Positions 28,051 to 35,802 of a stretch of 64,000 bases of DNA are shown piece after piece. A program made the position numbers and the translations under genes. The DNA comes from Dehalococcoidia bacterium. GTDB lineage: Bacteria; Chloroflexota; Dehalococcoidia; UBA2979. The DNA lies in assembly GCA_965262725.1 (NCBI GenBank), contig OZ253555.1, forward strand, positions 2,944,001 to 3,008,000, in the 5' to 3' direction. The notes beneath the pieces are model-generated. The model searched no databases and was not told where the DNA came from. It worked only from the letters and a program-made list of their open reading frames with translations. Each line of letters starts with the position of its first letter. Positions within the stretch are counted from its first letter, which is position 1.

Positions 28051-29631
28051 ATGGCCTACCGGGAGGTACACGGGGTGGAGATCCAGGAGATCATTCGTCG
28101 CTGGCAGGCGGGGCTCAGCCAGCGCCGCATCGCCAGCGGGATGGGGTTGTCGCGTCAGACGGTCCGCCGCTACATCGACGCGGCCGAAGCGGCCGGCCTC
28201 ACACCTGACGGTCCCGAGCCGAGTGAGGAGCAGCTCGCCGCGCTGGCGACGCTGAGCCTCTCCGGCCCGCGGCAGGTCGAGGCGCCGAGCGAGGAGCTGC
28301 TCTCGCCCTGGGCGGAGCAGATCGAGCGCTGGCTTGAGACCGACCGCCTGCAACTGACGCGCATCCAGGAGCTCCTCGCCGGACGAGGCTGCGAGGTCTC
28401 CTACACCACGCTGCGGCGTTTCATCCGGCGCCGCGGCTGGCGCCACCGGCTGCCGTCGACCGTGCGCATGGACGACGGGCCGCCGGGCGAGGTGGCGGAG
28501 ATGGACTTCGGCCGCCTCGGCTTCATCCGGGACCCCGAGAGCGGCCGCCGGCGCGCGGTGTGGGCGCTGGTCGTCGTCTGGCGCTACTCACGCCACTGCT
28601 TTGTGTGGCCCACCACCAGCCAGAAGCTGGACGCTGTGATCGAGGGCCTGGAGGAGGCCTGGGCCTTCTTCGGGGGAGTGCCCCGCTACCTCGTCATCGA
28701 TAACTTCCCGGCCGCCGTCGCCGGGGCCGACGCGCTGCACCCGCGCTTCACGCGGGGCTTCCTCGAGTACGCCCGCCACCGCGGCTTCATCACCGACCCC
28801 GCGCGCGTGCGTCATCCCCGCGACAAGCCGCGCGTCGAGCGCAGCATCCCCTACGTGCGCGAGCGCCTCTTCAAGGGCGGCGACTTCCGGGACGTCGTCG
28901 ACCTGCGCTCCGCCGCCCGCAGCTGGTGCCTGGAGGTGGCGGGACAGCGCATCCACGGCACGACACGCCGGCGCCCGCTCGAGGTCTTCCGGGAGGAGGA
29001 GCTCCCTCTCCTCGCTCCCTGGGACGGCGAGCCCTACGAGGTCCCCGACTGGCGGACCGCCACGGTCCATCCCGACCACCACATCGCCTGCCAGTACGCG
29101 CTGTACTCGGTGCCGTCCACGGCCTGCCCGCCCCGCCAGAAGGTCGAGGTGCAGCTCGGCTCGAAGCTGGTGCGCATCTACCACCGCGGTCAGCTCATCA
29201 AGGTCCACCCGCGCCAGCGCCGGGGCGGCCGGGCCACCGACCCGAACGACTACCCGGCCGAGCTCACCCCCTACACCAGGCGGGCGCCCGACTGGATACA
29301 GCGCCGCGCCGCCGAGCTGGGGGAGGCCGTGGGCGCCTACGCCGAGCGTCTCTTCGAGGGCTCCCTGCCCTGGGCGAAGCTGCGGCAGGGCCACAAGCTG
29401 CTGCGCCTCGCCGAGCGCTACTCCCCGGACCGCCTCGACGCCGCCTGCCGCCGCGCGCTCGAGGTCGACCTCATCGACGTGCGCCGCCTCGAGCGCATCC
29501 TCGTCGAGGCCCTCGACCAGGAGAGCACCCCAGACCAGCCCGAGCTGCCGCCGCCTCCGGGGCGCTTCGCCCACTCGGGCTCCGTCTTCGCACAGTCCCG
29601 CACGCAGACCCCGACAGGAGCACCACGATGA
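28051..29631 (+). CDS. istA: IS21 transposase
   Basis: N-terminal HTH; DDE motifs EMDFG, VIDN, KPRVER. Confidence 0.93.
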   Translation: MAYREVHGVEIQEIIRRWQAGLSQRRIASGMGLSRQTVRRYIDAAEAAGLTPDGPEPSEEQLAALATLSLSGPRQVEAPSEELLSPWAEQIERWLETDRLQLTRIQELLAGRGCEVSYTTLRRFIRRRGWRHRLPSTVRMDDGPPGEVAEMDFGRLGFIRDPESGRRRAVWALVVVWRYSRHCFVWPTTSQKLDAVIEGLEEAWAFFGGVPRYLVIDNFPAAVAGADALHPRFTRGFLEYARHRGFITDPARVRHPRDKPRVERSIPYVRERLFKGGDFRDVVDLRSAARSWCLEVAGQRIHGTTRRRPLEVFREEELPLLAPWDGEPYEVPDWRTATVHPDHHIACQYALYSVPSTACPPRQKVEVQLGSKLVRIYHRGQLIKVHPRQRRGGRATDPNDYPAELTPYTRRAPDWIQRRAAELGEAVGAYAERLFEGSLPWAKLRQGHKLLRLAERYSPDRLDAACRRALEVDLIDVRRLERILVEALDQESTPDQPELPPPPGRFAHSGSVFAQSRTQTPTGAPR

Positions 29632-30401
29632 CCGCCACCACCTCAGACCTCCGTCCGCTGCTCAAGCGCCTCAAGCTCGGCCGTATGCTCGACACCCTGC
29701 CCGAGCGCATCGCCCTCGCGCGGCGCGACCACCTCGACTACGCGGACTTCCTGCAGATCCTGCTCGTCGACGAGGTGAGCCGCCGCGACCACGGGCGGTT
29801 GGAGCTGCGCCTGCGCCAGGCCGGCTTCGAGCAGCTCTGCCGCCTCGAGGACTTCGACTGGGCGGCCGCCATCCGGCTCGACCGCCGCCTGCTCGACGCC
29901 GCCTTCTCGCTGCACTTCCTCGATCGCCGCGAGCACGTCCTGCTCGTCGGCCCCGTCGGCGTCGGCAAGAGCTTCTTAGCCCAGGCGCTCGGCTACTCAG
30001 CCGTCCGCTCCGGACGCAGCGTCCGCTTCGCCCCGGCCGACCACTACTTCCGCGAGATGGCGCAGGCCCGCGTCGACCACTCGGCCGAGAAGGTCTTTCG
30101 AAGCTTCCTCGCGCCCGACCTGCTCATCCTCGACGACCTCGGGCTCCATCGCCTCAGCGCGCAGCAGTCCATCGACCTCTACGAGCTGGTCATCGGGCGC
30201 CACCGCAGCTCCAGCTTCGTCATCACCTCGAACCGCGCCGTAGAGGAATGGCTGGGTCTCTTCGACGACCCGATCCTCGGCAACAGCGCCCTCGACCGCC
30301 TCGCCAACGCCAGCTACCAGATCGTGATCGAGGGCGATAGCTACCGCCAGCGGCTCTCGCCGCACCGCGCCCTGCTCGAGGCGCAGACGGGAGGTGATTG
30401 A
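29628..30401 (+). CDS. istB: IS21 helper ATPase
   Basis: GPVGVGKS, LILDDLG, ITSNR, ALDRL; ATGA overlap with istA. Confidence 0.94.
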   Translation: MTATTSDLRPLLKRLKLGRMLDTLPERIALARRDHLDYADFLQILLVDEVSRRDHGRLELRLRQAGFEQLCRLEDFDWAAAIRLDRRLLDAAFSLHFLDRREHVLLVGPVGVGKSFLAQALGYSAVRSGRSVRFAPADHYFREMAQARVDHSAEKVFRSFLAPDLLILDDLGLHRLSAQQSIDLYELVIGRHRSSSFVITSNRAVEEWLGLFDDPILGNSALDRLANASYQIVIEGDSYRQRLSPHRALLEAQTGGD

Positions 30402-30490
30402 CGCGCTAGTGTCCTGATTCGTAATAGCGACAGATAACGGGTATGGTGGCACAGCGGGGTTTTGCCCCATGGGGCAGACTCTGGAGTGTC

Positions 30491-33400
30491 ATGAGCACCC
30501 GAATCGGACGGCCGACGGTCGCGATCGTCCTGAGCGACGAGGAGCGTGAGACGCTGGAGCGGTGGGCGCGCCGGCCGACATCGGCCCAGGCGCTGGCGCT
30601 GCGCTGTCGCATCGTCCTGGCAGCGGCCGAGGGGACATCGAATAAAGCGATCGCCGCGGCGCTCGATTGCCATCCGGTCACCGTCGGCAAGTGGCGCCGG
30701 CGCTTTGCGCAGGGGCGGCTCGATGGGCTACAGGATGAGCCGCGCCCCGGGGCGCCGCGCACGATCGCCGATGCACAGGTGGAAGCGGTGATCGTCACGA
30801 CGCTGGAGGAGCAGCCTCCCAACGCGACGCACTGGTCGACCCGATCGATGGCAGCCGCGGTCGGGATGTCGCAGTCGGCGATCTTCAGGATCTGGCGCGC
30901 CTTCGGCCTGAAGCCGCACCTCGTGGAGAGCTTCAAGCTGTCGCCCGACCCGCAGTTCATCGACAAGGTGCGCGACGTGGCCGGGCTCTATCTCAACCCG
31001 CCCGACGCGGCGGTTGTGCTGTGCGTGGACGAGAAGACCCAGATCCAGGCACTCGACCGCACCGCGCCGACGGTGCCGATGATGCCCGGCGTCCCCGCCC
31101 GCCAGACGCACGACTACATCCGTCACGGCACGACGAACCTCTACGCGGCGCTCGATGTCGCCTCGGGATGCGTGATCACGGAGATGACCCCCCGGCACCG
31201 GGCTCGGGAGTTCCAGCAGTTCCTCGCCCTCATCGACCAAAGCGTTCCCCGTGAGCTGGCGGTGCATGTCGTGCTCGACAACGTCTCCACGCACCGCACG
31301 CCCGCCATCCAGCGCTGGCTCCAGCGCCATCCCCGCTTCACCTTCCATTTCACGCCGACCTACAGCTCCTGGATGAACCTCGTGGAGCGCTGGTTTGCAG
31401 AGCTCACCAGCAAGTGGCTCCGGCGCGGCACGCACCATAGCGTCCCTGATCTGATCCGCTCAGTGGAGATGTGGGTCGCCAGCTGGAACGAGAATCCGAG
31501 GCCCTTCATCTGGCACAAGTCCGCGGACCAGATCCTTGAGTAGGGTCAGGGGCTGGCGCGGTGCGAGCCGTAGGCGGTGGCGCATATTGCCAGGCCGGTT
31601 TCCCGGTGGCGCCCATCTCCACAGCCGTAGCATCGTCCGTCTCCAGCCCCTGCCGCCTCGAACCGGACGTGAGGTTTTCCCTCATCCGGCTCACCGATGC
31701 CCTTCACCGGGCGGCATGCGGGGTGCCCCGCCACGGTCGATATGGCCGTGGTGCCACGACGCGCTGTCCAGCTAGCGAGATGAGCCCCAGACGGTCGGCG
31801 ACGGGAAACGGGTGCCCGCGATGGCGTCGCCGCCAACGCAACCGCTTCCCCAGCCAGAGTTTGAGTCTCCACATGGCAAACCAGTGCAGGACGTCGAACG
31901 CCCTCGCCGAGTTGCCGTAGCGGAAGTAGCTCATCCAGCCGCGGAGGTAGCGATTGACTTCCTCCACGACCTGCCGGGGACTCAGCAGCAGACGCAACCG
32001 CGCCGTGATTTCACGGATGCGGTCCCGCGCCCGCTGCATCGCTCGCCGTGAGGGCCAGCGTGCGAGGAACTGGATATTCTTGTTGCGCTTCGCACGTACC
32101 CAGCGATGCTCGAAGCCGAGGAACTCCAGCCCCTCGCCTCCCTCCCGCAGGTGCACGATGCGCGTCTTCTCCGCCTTGAGCTCCAGTCCGAGCTCACCCA
32201 GCAGGTCACGCAGCAGGGCCAACGCCCGCTCCGCTTCCTCCCGGCTCCGGCAGAGCACCACGAGGTCATCCGCATAGCGCACCAGCACGCCATCACCCTT
32301 CGCCTCCCAGTCCCGGTCCAACCGGTGCAGGTAGACATTGGCCAGCAGCGGGGACATCACCCCGCCCTGCGGCGTACCCGTCGCGCTGTGCTGCACGACC
32401 CCCGACTCCATCACACCGGCACGCAGCATCGCCCGTACCAGCTTCAGGAGATTGCGGTCGCATATCCGTTCCTCGACGGCCGTCATCAGACGGTCGTGTA
32501 GGGTCAGGGGCTGGCGCGGTGCGAGCCGTAGGCGGTGGCGCATCAGTTCCAAGCCGGTTTCCCGGTGGTGCCCAACTCCACGGCCATAGCAGCGTCCGTC
32601 TCCAGCCCCTGCCACATCGAACCGGACGTGAGGTTCTCCCTCATCCGGCTCACCGATGCCCTTCACCAGATGGCATGCAGCGCTCCCCACAACGTGGGTC
32701 GTGCCTTGGCCAGCCGGTACAGCATGTGCGGAGAGCCTCGAACCCTACCAAGTGGTTGCTAGCCCCGAGGGGCACTCACCAGTCCACACCCCCAGCAACA
32801 TGCACGGACAAAGTAGGGGTCCTTCCCATCACCGGCGGTTATGTTGTCCGTCCGGCTCCAGCGGTACTACGACCCCCTCCGCCACCCTTCCGGCTGGCTG
32901 TCCACTTCCCGGCTCTGACCGGTTATAGGACGCCTCGCTCCGACGCCCTCTCACAGGGTGCCGGGCCGGGGAGGGCTTCTCCGGTTCCCGTCGCTACCTT
33001 CCGTACGTTCCACGTCCCATACGCCGGGAGGTTTCTTGAGGCTGCATTCCAGGATCTTCACCTCGTCCATGGCCTTCGCCCTGACCACCCGGGCTCGGCT
33101 CCTCCTTGGTCCTGTCAATAGACAGGCGAGTCTCACGGCGCGGCAGACTTCGCGTCATGCTGCGGACCGCACGTTTGCTCCCCCTCATAGGGCTCTTGAC
33201 GTCGGGCTTCGACGCAGACCGTTTCCCGTCCACGCCGCCGACCTGCTAACGGGCCTCCTGACAGTTACCCGTGCCGGACTCTCACCGGCTGGCAGCAACG
33301 AGCATGTCTCCGGACCGGTCACGTCATCACGTCACCACCCCTTCGACTTCCGGACGCACGCGGTATCGACTCGAAACACGAGGCGATGTCCGTCTCCACT

Positions 33401-34521
33401 ACCCACCGCCTGCCCCGCCACGCCTCGTCAATGAGGACCTGCAGGGCGTCATGGGCCGAACGCTTCGGGCGGAAGCCGAAGCTGCATGGCAGGAAGTCGG
33501 CCTCGAAGACCGGCTCCGTCACGAGCTTCAGCGACGCCTGCACGATGCGGTCGCGGACCGAAGGAATCGAGAGCGGGCGCTCTTCCGACCGACCGGGCTT
33601 GGGTATCCAGACCCGGCGGCTCGGCTGCACCCGGTATCTTCCCTCCTTCAGTTCCGTGGCCAGTTCATCCAGCAGGCGCTCCACGCCGTAGCGCTCGACC
33701 TCGGCGAGCGTGACGCCGTCGATACCGGCTGCGCCGCGATTGCGACGCACCTGCTCCCACGCGCGCTCCAGAATGTCTCTGCGATAAACCTTGTCGTAGA
33801 GCGCATGAAAGCGTCTATTGGGGTCGGCCTTGGCCGCCCGGTAAAGCGTGCGTTGTAGTGTTCGGACCTTGTCTTGGATGGAGTTAGCCGCTTGGGCACT
33901 CACCGATTCATCCCTACTCCCCACGCGTGAGCAAAGCAGGGGTCCTTCCCATCACCGGCGGTTGTGTTGTCCGTCCGGCTCAAGCGGTACTACGACCCCC
34001 TCCGTCACCCTTCCGGCTAGCTGCCCACTTCCCGGCTTTGACCGGTTATAGGGCACCTCGCTCCGACACCATCTCGCAGGGTGCCGGGCCGGGGAGGGCT
34101 TCTCCCGTTCCCGTCGCTACCTTCCAAACGTTCCACGCCCCTTACGCCGGGAGGTTCCTTGAGGCTGCAGCGCAACGCGCATTCAGGATCTTCACCTCGT
34201 CCATGGCCTTCGCCCTGAATTGCCGGGCTCGGCTCCTCCACTATCCGTTAACGACGCGGCAGGCTTCGCTTGATGCTGCGGACCGCCTGGTTGCTCCCCC
34301 TGATAGGGCTCTTGACGTCGGGCTTCGACGTGGACCGTTTCCCGTCCGCGCCGCCGACCTGCTAACGGGCCTCCTGACAGTTACCCGTGCCGGACTCGCA
34401 CCGGCTGGCAACGACGAGCATGTCTCCAGACCGGTTACGTCATCACGTCACCCGCCCTTCGACTTCGGGACACACCAACCTCACCGGATATCTCAATCGC
34501 ATTTCCAATTCAGGACACTAG
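30491..34521 (+). CDS. IS630 transposase, split: join(30491..31539,34476..34521), 364 aa
   Basis: CVDEK, VLDN, SWMNLVERWF; removing 31540-34475 gives ...ADQIL-D-NLTGYLNRISNSGH*. Confidence 0.92.
31704..33903 (-). CDS. ltrA: Group II intron RT/maturase, no En domain, split: join(33903..33360,32497..31704), 445 aa
   Basis: RRFHALYDKV, GAAGIDG, IPKPG, RDRIVQ, SFGFRP, DIASCFESIP|HDRL, GTPQGG, YADD, FLGF, domain X GWMSYF. Confidence 0.93.
32498..33359 (-). mobile_element. Inner ORF-less group II intron (862 nt)
   Basis: 5' GTGCG, 3' CCCTAC; domain V at 32619-32651; domains I-III closely similar to the outer intron; removal restores the RT frame. Confidence 0.93.
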
Positions 34522-35802
34522 CAGGGTGCTGAAGAAGCTCCTTCCGGGGGCCTCGGAGCGGTGCCGGGCGGCTTGAGAGGCCACGTCCGGCTTCGTGATC
34601 GCCGTCTCCTGACCTGCCCCCGGCGGCCTCGGAGGGCTCCTGGACCGGCCGTAGGGCGCAGTGCGCCCTACGCCGTGGCAGCCTCGAGCCTGGCCATGCG
34701 CACCAGGTTGTAGGCGGCGGCGGTGAGCTCCAGCCAGCAGCGGTTGCGCTCGCGGCCCACGAAGCGCAGCTTGCGCCCGCCGCCCACGGTCTTCATCCAG
34801 CCGAAGACCTGCTCCACGATCGTGCGTCGCTTCTGACTCTGCCTGTAGCCGCGATGCCGCGTGGTGCGCCCGTCCACGGCGCTGCGGCGGCGGCGATCGT
34901 GCTGCGCCACGCCGCGCCCGCGCAGTTCCGCCACGAAGTCGCGCGTGTCGTAGCCGCGGTCGGCGCCCAGCGTCCCGCAGCCGCTCACGCTGCGCTCCAG
35001 CATCGTGACCGCCGCCTCGCGCTCGGCGTACCCGTTCGCCTCGGTCAGCTCCAGGTCCAGCACCAGACCATGACGGTTCTCGGTGAGCAGGTGGCCCATG
35101 TAGCTCAGTCTCGCCGTCTGCCCCGACCCTTTCGTGTACAGCCGCGCCTGCGGGTCCGTGCCGGAACTATGCGTATCGCGGCGGCGGCGCCGCCCCCGGA
35201 AGTCGACCTCCGGGTTGCGCCCGCCCGGGGGTGTCCTGCTCGTCGCGCGGGCGGTAGCTCTTGAGCGAGGCCCAGGCCTCCAGCAGCGTCCCGTCCACGG
35301 TGAAGTGGTCGGCGGAGAGCAGCCGACGCCGCCTGGCCTCGGCCACCACCTCGGCGAAGAAGGCGCGCGCGACATCGGCAGCGAGCAGGCGCTCGCGATT
35401 CTTCGAGAAGCTGGAGGCGTCGAACGGCTCGTCTGAGATGTTGAGGTCGAGGAACCACTTGAACAGCAGGTCGTAGCGCAGCCGCTCGCAGAACTGGCGC
35501 TCGCTGCGGATCGAGTAGAGCGCGATCAGCAGGCTCGCCTTGAGCAGGTGCTCGGGCGGGATCGAGGGCCGGCCGCTCTTGCTGTACATCGTGCCGAACA
35601 GCGGTGAGAGCCGCTGCAGCGCGGAATCGACGATCGGTTTGATGCGGCGGATCGGGTGGTCGTCCGGGATGAAGGCGTCCGGCGTCACCGCCAGCAACAT
35701 GTTGGTCTGACGCTCAGCGTCGCCTCGCATGGGGCGCCTCCAGGCTACGCCCCCGCCGCCTTCGCTATCCTGCCAGACGGCTGACCCTTTTTCAGCACCC
35801 TG
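34522..35802 (-). mobile_element. IS5-family element with frameshifted transposase (35730->34668)
   Basis: IRs CAGGGTGCTGAA flanked by CTAG direct repeats; GRPSIPPE, RSERQF, VDGT, ADRGY, IVEQVFGWMK; frameshift near 35225. Confidence 0.88.

Follow-up and report, generated by a model that had tools for sequence, protein, structure and literature searches.

A group II twintron in a Dehalococcoidia genome: an ORF-less intron within the reverse transcriptase gene of a related intron

Nested group II introns described so far and the present locus

The nesting of ORF-less group II introns within the ORFs of the intron-encoded proteins (IEPs) of related introns has already been described in Thermosynechococcus elongatus and Methanosarcina acetivorans. 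In T. elongatus, the IEP ORF of TeI4 was found to harbour the ORF-less intron TeI3 (Mohr, Ghanem & Lambowitz 2010, PMC2882425) and, to the extent of that description, several traits are shared with the locus analyzed here: the ORF-less intron arose from a related, ORF-containing intron whose ORF was deleted, it uses the IEP ORFs of kindred introns as homing sites, its copies are identical and those of the outer intron slightly variable, and other family members target insertion sequences, comparable to the IS630 home reported below. ORF-less copies were mobilized in trans in T. elongatus, and mobility in trans is also probable in the present case. In contrast, the T. elongatus insertion lies between the first two ATG codons, so that the IEP can be produced from the second ATG without splicing, whereas here codon 182 is split inside the RT domain (between RVT_1 positions 83 and 84) and therefore no bypass is possible. 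Moreover, two of the T. elongatus introns keep continuous ORFs, in comparison with none of the 15 cognate ORFs in this genome, which belongs to a different lineage, the Dehalococcoidia.

In M. acetivorans (Dai & Zimmerly 2003, as summarized in PMC4424553 and PMC2882425), ORF-less and RT-encoding introns have repeatedly homed, in a site-specific manner, into related introns or their ORFs, forming multi-level nests in which no host coding exon is involved. All these features were also observed here, including a three-level nest at genome positions 732582-737446. However, in that archaeon a few arrays reach as many as five levels, whereas here a two-level unit is repeated 12 times, always in IS630, and is accompanied by ectopic copies in host genes. 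Three traits described for RmInt1 of Sinorhizobium meliloti (PMC4238363, PMC8914252) were found as well: an IEP without endonuclease, a home in an IS630-family transposase gene (that of ISRm2011-2, IS630-Tc1 family, for RmInt1) and a preference for the lagging-strand template, together with a high copy number. Nevertheless, RmInt1 is sense-oriented, its splicing being needed for the transposase, and is not a twintron, while the intron studied here is antisense. A bacterial intron within an intron was also reported in Trichodesmium erythraeum, where sequential splicing was demonstrated (Pfreundt & Hess 2015, PMC4649490); according to that account, the inner intron has an IEP gene of its own, lies in domain I and belongs to a twintron interrupting a conserved host gene, in contrast to the ORF-less inner intron in domain IV, and the IS630 home, of the present case.

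Literature searches for twintrons in Chloroflexota or Dehalococcoidia returned nothing beyond the known cases. Since the phenomenon is already documented, the value of the locus lies in a well-resolved case from an uncultured Chloroflexota lineage rather than in a new principle. It offers a clear natural case of one retroelement parasitizing another, in which a non-autonomous intron inserts into the gene for the enzyme on which it would depend, with every cognate copy saturated in one genome and leakage into host genes; related populations keep the uninvaded state and thus provide before-and-after material. The spread of ORF-less introns, the splicing-gated expression of a helper and the build-up of intron-in-intron nests could be addressed with it, all three questions bearing on models of intron proliferation.

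Anatomy of the twintron and its IS630 home

The window, i.e. the whole stretch of DNA analyzed, spans 64,000 nt. Based on the sequence and on Rfam matches, its minus strand from 34475 to 31540 was identified as a group II intron of 2,936 nt with boundaries exact to the base (outer intron); a second, ORF-less intron is inserted within its domain IV ORF loop, leaving the ribozyme domains of the outer intron untouched (Table 1). A previous sequence-only reading had placed two complete minus-strand ribozymes at 34475 to 31540 and 33359 to 32498, and all of these coordinates were correct. In the covariance search that it had suggested, both group-II-D1D4-4 matches exceeded the Rfam gathering score (49 bits for RF02003), as did the outer domain V match (40 bits for RF00029), while the inner domain V match fell just below because the long domain VI was scored as an insertion. 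Inner positions 1-551 aligned to the outer intron at 86.3% over 562 columns and positions 666-862 at 89.3% over 197 columns; together with the Rfam matches, these alignments bear out the view that each intron carries its own domains V and VI and similar domains I-III.

Table 1. Features of the twintron and of the IS630-family element (positions in the window)
Feature	Position	Strand	Evidence or remark
IS630-family element, left part	30406..31539	+	NF033545 transpos_IS630 270.9 bits, DDE_3; limits by blastn vs genome
IS630 left inverted repeat TAGTGTCCTGA...	in the left part	+	blastn repeat limits
IS630 transposase ORF	30443-31543	+	TAG stop supplied by intron end
Outer intron, 3' segment	31540..32497	-	RVT_1 84-204 + GIIM, TIGR04416 139-352, RF00029, fold
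Outer 3' end ...CCCTAC	31540	-	sequence
Outer domain VI, long	31654-31544	-	bulged A at 31546 in fold
Outer domain V	31692-31660	-	RF00029 match 31694-31627, 41.5 bits
RT C-terminal half + X/maturase, codon 182 onward	stop 31704-31706	-	RVT_1, GIIM, TIGR04416
Inner ORF-less group II intron, 862 nt	32498..33359	-	RF02003, alignment to outer, genome copies, ectopic IBS test, fold
Inner 3' end	32498	-	sequence
Inner bulged A	32504	-	fold
Inner domain V	32651-32619	-	domain V match 32653-32498, 37.5 bits, just below gathering
Inner EBS1 GTGGT	33088-33084	-	alignment, ectopic-site IBS test
Inner EBS2 GACTCG	33132-33127	-	alignment, ectopic-site IBS test
Inner D1-D4 core	33291-33155	-	RF02003 group-II-D1D4-4, 102.8 bits
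Inner 5' end GTGCG	33359	-	sequence
Outer intron, 5' segment	33360..34475	-	RF02003, RVT_1 1-83, TIGR04416 2-137
Outer EBS1 CAATT	34222-34218	-	inner/outer alignment, pairing test
Outer EBS2 CGGATA	34247-34242	-	inner/outer alignment, pairing test
Outer D1-D4 core	34407-34271	-	RF02003 group-II-D1D4-4, 93.7 bits
Outer 5' end GTGTG	34475	-	sequence
IS630 right part	34476..34521	+	last 15 transposase codons, stop codon, right inverted repeat ...TCAGGACACTA

The termini of group II introns (5' GUGYG, 3' AY) were present in both elements (GTGTG in the outer, GTGCG in the inner, and ...CTAC ends), which share the same 3' end, ...CCCCTGACCCTAC. Domain V of group II introns is a hairpin of about 34 nt with an AGC triad and a 2-nt bulge, and domain VI carries a bulged branch-point A located 7-8 nt from the 3' splice site. 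Minimum free energy folding predicted a canonical domain V hairpin, GAGCCGGAUGAGG-loop-CCUCACGUCCGGUUC, in both introns, followed by an unusually long domain VI stem (about 110 nt) and a putative bulged A as the seventh nucleotide from each 3' end. The inner intron keeps domains I-III, a remnant of the first ~30 ORF codons, and domains V and VI, but has no ORF, a stop being reached after 6 codons; its positions 1-664 aligned at 83% to the intron of the sister species G003, first ORF codons included. This structure identifies it as an ORF-deletion derivative of a sister intron. Differences between the inner and outer introns were concentrated at the EBS1 and EBS2 loops, and the DIVa region, just 5' of the start codon, was also divergent. 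This is the region bound by the IEPs of studied introns, and therefore recognition of the inner intron by the IEP of family A, to which the twintrons belong, is not assured.

In silico removal of 32498-33359 left an outer intron of 2,074 nt with a continuous 445-codon RT/maturase ORF, opening the frame ...DIASCFESIPHDRLMTAVEE...; translation was set at the conserved GTG at 33903 (445 aa), an upstream GTG at 33924 giving 452 aa. The insertion splits His codon 182 of 445, whose first base lies at 33360, in the RT domain. The two ORF halves matched consecutive profile stretches (RVT_1 1-83 and 84-204, followed by GIIM; TIGR04416 2-137 and 139-352, summing to 389.9 bits against a cutoff of 300), indicating that the split is seamless. 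These results agree with the earlier proposal that excision of the inner intron rejoins an intact 445-aa ORF. The stop that it had noted at 33319 in the unspliced frame was also seen (33319-33321) and, with the insertion falling inside RVT_1, a whole IEP would be translatable only after inner intron removal, as had been stated. Domain profile searches of the IEP detected no endonuclease domain. A 328-aa ORF (31704-32690) stays open through inner domains V and VI, in DNA of 70% GC. An RT made of two fragments, an N-terminal 201-aa ORF plus this one, was considered and set aside, since frames open by chance are likely at such GC content.

The outer intron lies in the 3' end of the transposase gene, in antisense orientation. 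The 46-nt right end was identical in empty and filled IS630 copies, and the transposase C-terminus reads ...ILDNLTGYLNRISNSGH before the stop codon in empty copies and ...ILE in interrupted ones. The suggestion that outer intron excision restores the IS630 ORF therefore stands at the DNA level, as seen in the empty copies, but not for the mRNA: with the transposase on the plus strand and the intron on the minus strand, RNA splicing cannot restore the transposase message.

Copies, target sites and relatives

The genome contains 12 near-identical twintrons, all of them in IS630 copies. Cognate RT genes were split at the same site by an identical inner intron in 12/12 family-A and 3/3 family-B copies, and no uninterrupted family A or B RT site was found in this assembly allowing up to 6 mismatches in 35 nt (0/15 continuous). 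A total of 28 inner copies were detected, 24 full-length at 100% identity and 4 disrupted, 12 of them at ectopic sites outside family A/B RT genes. Families A and B are ~80% identical, yet share inner copies of 100% identity, which leaves no doubt that the inner intron is mobile by itself. Outer copies showed 3 variable sites and inner copies none, although the polishing of repeats to a consensus during metagenome assembly could contribute to this absence of SNPs. Further breakage by IS insertions or a tandem copy affected 6/12 family-A twintrons and 2/3 family-B copies; the other six twintrons showed no structural damage and kept their split ORFs intact, apart from a 1-nt deletion in domain I in one of them. 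Twintrons occupied at least 3 IS630 sequence variants, each also with empty members. A tandem inner-inner pair at genome positions 549500-551223 showed re-insertion at the same IBS boundary, and several ectopic inner copies were sense-oriented inside host genes (e.g. ABC-2 permease, RNase_T-type exonuclease). Other families contributed at least 12 continuous group II RT genes (a 10-copy family with 37.7% identity, a gene at 1683319 and a nested one at 734979). These RTs are only 38-40% identical; of the two such loci scanned, one was of the D1D4-6 type and the other, from the 10-copy family, gave no D1D4 hit.

Just 5' of the inner insertion point, the RT-coding sequence CGAGTC...ACCGC pairs with inner EBS2 (GACUCG) and EBS1 (GUGGU); for the outer intron, CAAUU and CGGAUA pair with GGUUG and UAUCCG, respectively. 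At the 12 ectopic sites, IBS1 pairing was 5/5 in 8 and 4/5 in 4 (background 3.6% for 5/5 and 20% for at least 4/5), and IBS2 pairing reached at least 5/6 in 10 (22% background). The EBS of the G003 intron co-varies with its own exon. Class C (IIC) introns have no EBS2 and insert after terminator hairpins. The EBS2/IBS2 pairing supported at the 12 ectopic sites speaks against that class, and the insertion targets, which are coding regions of the RT gene and of IS630, are unlike class C sites; the best PDB sequence matches of the IEP were IIC-type RTs (GsI-IIC 200.8 bits, LtrA 156, T.el4h 145). Relative to the replication landmarks of the genome (GC-skew minimum at 0.39-0.41 Mb, dnaA at 0.478 Mb, skew plateau at 2.41-2.66 Mb), 11-12 of the 12 ectopic inner copies lay on the lagging-strand template (p = 0.0005-0.006). 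The favourable orientation was found in 9-10/12 twintrons vs. 5/14 empty IS630 sites (Fisher p = 0.02-0.06), with two twintrons in the unfavourable one.

In the sister species G003, the same intron is uninterrupted (2,073 nt, collinear at 87%), and the predicted ligated FESIPHDRLM is the natural protein sequence (87% identity over 451 aa). Contigs from the public runs X8 and X11 join 33360 to 32497 exactly, reflecting either DNA polymorphism or splicing, as the library type is unrecorded; in X11, record 4 comprised 145 nt without differences plus 23 nt across the joint. In both samples the RT site was uninterrupted and the inner intron scarce or absent, which counts against the interrupted state being obligate, although X11 lacks coverage at 33005-33325 and X19 is partly uncovered, so that absence there is not evidence. 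A run from another study (X5) yielded an 842-nt contig extending from the RT C-terminal half 23 nt into the inner 3' end. The spliced joint was absent from the 3 short contigs of the RNA-labelled run X19, in which DNA carry-over is possible: one contig of 263 nt lies inside the inner intron (depth 2.9), and the other two are domain V look-alikes from other introns. A search of 40 relatives did not yield the ORF-less inner intron, and no twintron of the same type was present among the 5 loci returned for the RT C-half in genome contigs, 4 of them in two relatives. JGI metagenome contigs gave no exact match to the uninterrupted RT site (30 nt) or to the exon/inner 5' junction (29 nt), a result rendered uninformative by exact matching.

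Proposed mode of spread and alternative explanations

The locus is a true twintron. The preferred reading, to which a probability of about 0.6 is assigned, is that its inner intron, devoid of an ORF, spreads through the RT genes of its helpers and likely needs the same IEP. The inner intron would be a non-autonomous hyperparasite having the helper's own RT gene as homing site. It would propagate at replication forks, where it would reverse-splice into single-stranded DNA and the nascent lagging strand would serve as primer for cDNA synthesis, the known route for introns without endonuclease. All family A and B RT genes would have been filled before the intron spilled over to a dozen sites of similar sequence, host genes among them, and the outer ribozyme could still fold, since its domains are untouched. 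Dependence on the family A IEP is most likely, as suggested by the lack of an ORF in the inner intron, the splitting of all its nearest RT genes (0/15 continuous) and the distance of the other RTs. Such dependence would establish a self-reinforcing on/off circuit, for whose initiation a basal level of self-splicing, protein carried over or a maturase of foreign origin would be required, and a maturase feedback loop is plausible from the sequence. A self-gating retroelement, in which the helper RT is conditional on a splicing event that requires that RT (a bistable switch), is a tentative and fairly unlikely extension; if true, the family would be silent until ignited and then burst, and host genes carrying the inner intron (ABC-2 permease, RNase_T-type exonuclease) would likewise be at the mercy of this switch. 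Feedback would be missing if the inner intron self-spliced in vivo or were served by another continuous maturase, the IEP being merely delayed. The continuous RT genes of other families (at least 12) fit this possibility, and so do the reports that some T. elongatus IEPs mobilize non-cognate relatives (PMC2882425) and that self-splicing in vitro is common among group II introns (PMC4424553), but it is considered somewhat improbable: the other RTs are only 38-40% identical and, where scanned, associated with other ribozyme types, and the relaxed specificity described in T. elongatus concerned IEPs 87% identical.

It is also conceivable, albeit unlikely, that the inner sweep shut off all helper genes, so that no family A/B IEP is made and the copies are inert relics. 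This would account for the lack of continuous cognate RT genes (0/15), the further damage to 6/12 family-A twintrons and 2/3 family-B copies and the lack of spliced RNA in the 3 short contigs of X19, and the uninterrupted sites in X8 and X11 are as expected of a recent lineage-specific sweep. Yet six twintrons are clean with intact split ORFs (including the one with the 1-nt domain I deletion), the 24 identical copies indicate very recent activity, and the sense-oriented inner copies would knock out the ABC-2 permease and the RNase_T-type exonuclease unless spliced. An artefactual nest, produced by mis-joined repeats in a metagenome assembly, is extremely improbable despite the richness of the genome in identical repeats and the recording of relatives as MAGs, considering that this nesting recurs 12 times with differing flanking sequences, that the insertion is codon-exact and its removal restores a conserved RT motif, and that a contig of the independent run X5 crosses the inner 3'/RT junction with a 23-nt side. 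A doubtful but real possibility is that the twintron spreads as a whole, through an outer lariat with the inner intron unspliced, or by riding IS630 transposition. Composite mobility was named as a possibility by Mohr et al. (PMC2882425), and would be consistent with the presence of the inner intron in 12/12 family-A copies, the occupation of at least 3 IS630 variants, each with empty members, and the location of the insertion in the domain IV loop, the outer ribozyme domains being undisturbed. On the other hand, separate movement of the inner intron, as in the preferred reading, follows from its identity across families A and B (~80% identical), and the 12 ectopic insertions and the tandem pair imply an activity able to saturate perfect sites. 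The 3 variable sites of the outer copies, in comparison with none in the inner ones, match the pattern argued as independent invasion in T. elongatus, and a purely passive ride on IS transposition is countered by the difference in orientation between filled and empty IS630 sites.

Anatomy and boundaries of the nested introns

The sequence-only reading had proposed two complete ribozymes on the minus strand, closely similar in domains I-III, and the intron starts and ends that it named are present in the sequence (see table). Completeness was upheld by the covariance models (Rfam), with a complete group-II-D1D4-4 core in each intron (gathering 49) and a match to domain V in each (gathering 40, the inner match scoring just below it). 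The likeness was likewise borne out by alignment, as inner positions 1-551 are 86.3% identical to outer positions 1-544, and inner positions 666-862 are 89.3% identical to the 3' 196 nt of the outer intron; judged by sequence, the two introns are related. In the predicted fold, domain V of both forms a canonical bulged hairpin and a bulged A lies 7 nt from each 3' end (31546 in the outer, 32504 in the inner intron). Domain VI has a usual length of 30-40 nt, and in both introns it is an unusually long stem of ~110 nt (31544-31654 and 32502-32612), because of which Rfam put the 3' end of the outer intron at 31627; its actual position follows from the ORF that is restored and from naturally joined contigs.

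Features of the twintron and inner-intron copies in or near host genes (window positions unless marked genome)
Feature	Position	Strand or orientation	Detail
IS630-family element	30406-34521		inverted repeats TAGTGTCCTGA...
Outer intron, 5' end	34475	minus	GTGTG (sequence)
Outer intron, D1D4-4 core	34407-34271	minus	93.7 bits
Outer intron, domain V match	31694-31627		41.5 bits
Outer intron, 3' end	31540	minus	...CCCCTGACCCTAC (common terminus)
Inner intron, 5' end	33359	minus	GTGCG (sequence)
Inner intron, D1D4-4 core	33291-33155	minus	102.8 bits
Inner intron, domain V match	32653-32498		37.5 bits
Inner intron, 3' end	32498	minus	...CCCCTGACCCTAC (common terminus)
Inner EBS2/IBS2	RT exon -14..-9		GACUCG : CGAGTC
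Inner EBS1/IBS1	RT exon -5..-1		GUGGU : ACCGC
Outer EBS2/IBS2	IS630 exon		CGGAUA : TATCCG
Outer EBS1/IBS1	IS630 exon		CAAUU : GGTTG
Inner copy	genome 1853597	sense	inside ABC-2 permease gene
Inner copy	genome 317108	sense	inside RNase_T/ExoX-like exonuclease gene
Inner copy	genome 1822597	sense	inside 1,550-codon LRR/cadherin ORF
Inner copy	genome 1302815	sense	~20 nt upstream of NAD kinase start

In-silico removal of 32498-33359 yielded an open frame (...DIASCFESIPHDRLMTAVEE...), the insertion point being after the first base of His codon 182. From the conserved start, GTG at 33903 (GGTGAGTG being common to the outer intron, the inner ORF remnant and the relative in G003, a sister species), the RT/maturase (IEP) has the 445 aa previously claimed, or 452 aa from an upstream GTG at 33924. 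The two halves matched TIGR04416 (2-137 and 139-352; 172.4 and 217.5 bits, cutoff 300) and RVT_1 (1-83 and 84-204), followed by GIIM, while profile search of both halves detected no endonuclease domain. The expected stop of the unspliced frame was found at 33319, and in this genome a full-length family A IEP would be obtainable only from RNA with the inner intron removed.

Independent proof of the boundaries was provided by G003 and by contigs from public sequencing runs. An uninterrupted 2,073-nt intron of G003 (same genus) is 87% identical to the outer intron without its inner guest (2,074 nt) along the full length, with a continuous RT (...DIVSCFESIPHDRLMAAVEE...; 87% identity over 451 aa). 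The exact 32497|33360 joint is contained, with a 23-nt side across it, in contigs of runs X8 (depth 49.2) and X11 (depth 42.9); over 145 nt of the RT C-half, X11 record 4 does not differ from the window. The joined form may be spliced RNA, but is more likely DNA without the inner intron; the sole RNA-labelled run carries a sponge metagenome label. In X5, which belongs to another study, an 842-nt contig starts in the RT C-half and extends 23 nt past the junction into the 3' end of the inner intron; that run showed no skip. One X11 contig joins window position 33859 to 32802, directly linking an inner-like DIVa (to inner position 558) with a family-A-like ORF (outer position 617).

The twintron is thus real, exactly bounded and well resolved, and of a kind already known from other microbes. 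Neither this system nor any twintron from Chloroflexota turned up in the literature search. The closest parallels are T. elongatus, M. acetivorans and RmInt1. As in T. elongatus, where TeI3 lies within the TeI4 IEP ORF, the inner intron is ORF-less; TeI3, however, is located between two ATGs and has continuous ORFs alongside. Nested homing into ORFs of related introns is shared with M. acetivorans, and the lifestyle of the outer intron with RmInt1.

Genome-wide copies and target recognition

In the single 3.67-Mb contig that holds the window (70.6% GC), blastn located the outer intron (family A) 12 times at 99.8-100% identity, always at the same IS630 site, across at least three IS630 sequence variants, and always split at outer position 1116 by the inner intron; six copies have no further insertions, one of them with a 1-nt deletion in domain I. 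A second RT-intron family (family B, three copies, ~80% identical to family A) has this inner intron at the identical point of its RT gene. Empty IS630 sites numbered 14, and no uninterrupted RT site was found in the assembly when as many as 6 of 35 nt were allowed to mismatch. The uninterrupted state does occur elsewhere, as seen in contigs of X8 and X11, and the inner 5' part lacks cover in X11, so the all-filled state looks like a recent, lineage-specific sweep.

The inner intron is present in 28 copies (24 full-length and 100% identical, four truncated or split by other insertions), of which 13 lie in the 12 family-A introns, three in family B and 12 at ectopic sites. Four ectopic copies are in sense orientation relative to host genes, and in G003 the orthologous permease and exonuclease genes continue unbroken precisely at the junction; a fifth (genome 1524130) interrupts a distant RT gene.

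The greatest divergence between the two introns was found in two domain I loops (EBS1 and EBS2), and the G003 intron has different loops again, matching its own exon. The ectopic sites offer an independent test of the predicted inner EBS/IBS pairing: IBS1 had 5/5 pairs in eight and 4/5 in four (random genome positions: 3.6% for 5/5, 20% for 4/5 or better), and IBS2 at least 5/6 pairs in 10/12 vs. 22% at random.

One family-A intron, at genome 549500-551223, holds a head-to-tail pair of identical inner introns in its RT site, as would be expected if an additional copy had reverse-spliced at the IBS1 boundary already used, ahead of the resident one. A three-level nest (L022, G000:C1:732582-737446) comprises a family-B intron, the inner ORF-less intron and, in the domain V terminal loop of the latter (inner position 722/723), an RT-encoding D1D4-6-type intron (RT ~39% identical). 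Three D1D4-4-type introns of G008, from another genus (L012, L013, L014), carry a D1D4-6 intron of this kind at the equivalent position; together these nests indicate that, within this bacterial family, introns of one family home into domain V of introns of a second.

Probable dependence on the maturase

The inner ORF remnant keeps ~30 codons, with a stop after six, and every one of the closest IEP genes is interrupted by the inner intron, which probably needs the family A IEP; a maturase feedback loop may plausibly result. The other continuous RTs (38-40% identical) comprise a 10-copy family and two further genes, at 1683319 and, nested, at 734979. Two of these loci were scanned with Rfam: the 1683319 intron is of D1D4-6 type, and one member of the 10-copy family gave no D1D4 match. 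Recognition of the inner intron by the IEP is not assured, since the two introns diverge just upstream of the IEP start codon.

Mobility and the IS630 host element

Introns lacking an endonuclease prime at replication forks, according to PMC4424553 and PMC8914252. Cumulative GC skew had its minimum at 0.39-0.41 Mb and a plateau maximum at 2.41-2.66 Mb, with dnaA at 0.478 Mb. For terminus positions within the plausible range, the lagging-strand template held 11-12 of the 12 inner copies at ectopic sites (binomial p = 0.0005-0.006), and the corresponding orientation was found in 9-10/12 twintrons vs. 5/14 empty IS630 sites (Fisher p = 0.02-0.06) and in 3/3 family-B copies. This bias argues for RNA-mediated retrohoming as the probable route, over passive IS630 transposition.

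Families A and B are ~80% identical, yet their inner copies do not differ at all; together with the tandem pair and the ectopic copies, this shows independent movement of the inner intron. Sequence varies at three sites among the outer copies (189G>A; 839A>C, i.e. R89S, in three copies; a 1-nt deletion) and at none among the inner copies, an identity that repeat polishing of the assembly could inflate; from the same pattern in T. elongatus, Mohr et al. concluded that dispersed outer introns had recently been invaded independently (PMC2882425). The twintron may also be mobile as one composite unit, but the 15/15 occupancy is accounted for without it, since 12 ectopic hops lead to the expectation that all perfect sites are saturated.

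The IS630 transposase is encoded on the plus strand (NF033545, 270.9 bits), and the twintron is therefore antisense to it; the proposal that outer excision restores the IS630 ORF thus holds only at the DNA level, as the transposase mRNA cannot be restored by splicing. The C-terminus reads ...ILDNLTGYLNRISNSGH in empty and ...ILE in filled copies, the latter stop coming from the intron end. RmInt1, as described in PMC4238363, is instead sense-oriented in its IS630-family host. The left part of the element (30406-31539) shares 100% identity with copies that end, on the right, in a sequence variant other than that of 34476-34521, so the twintron flanks look chimeric. Homologous recombination between the 2.9-kb identical twintrons may account for this, and could also explain why two copies have the 'wrong' orientation relative to replication. 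On either side of the element, at 28926-30401 (plus) and 34668-35730 (minus), lie genes of other insertion sequences, namely an IstB-like ATPase ORF that recurs >15 times in the genome and a pair of DDE transposase-like ORFs, and the genome overall is very rich in identical IS copies.
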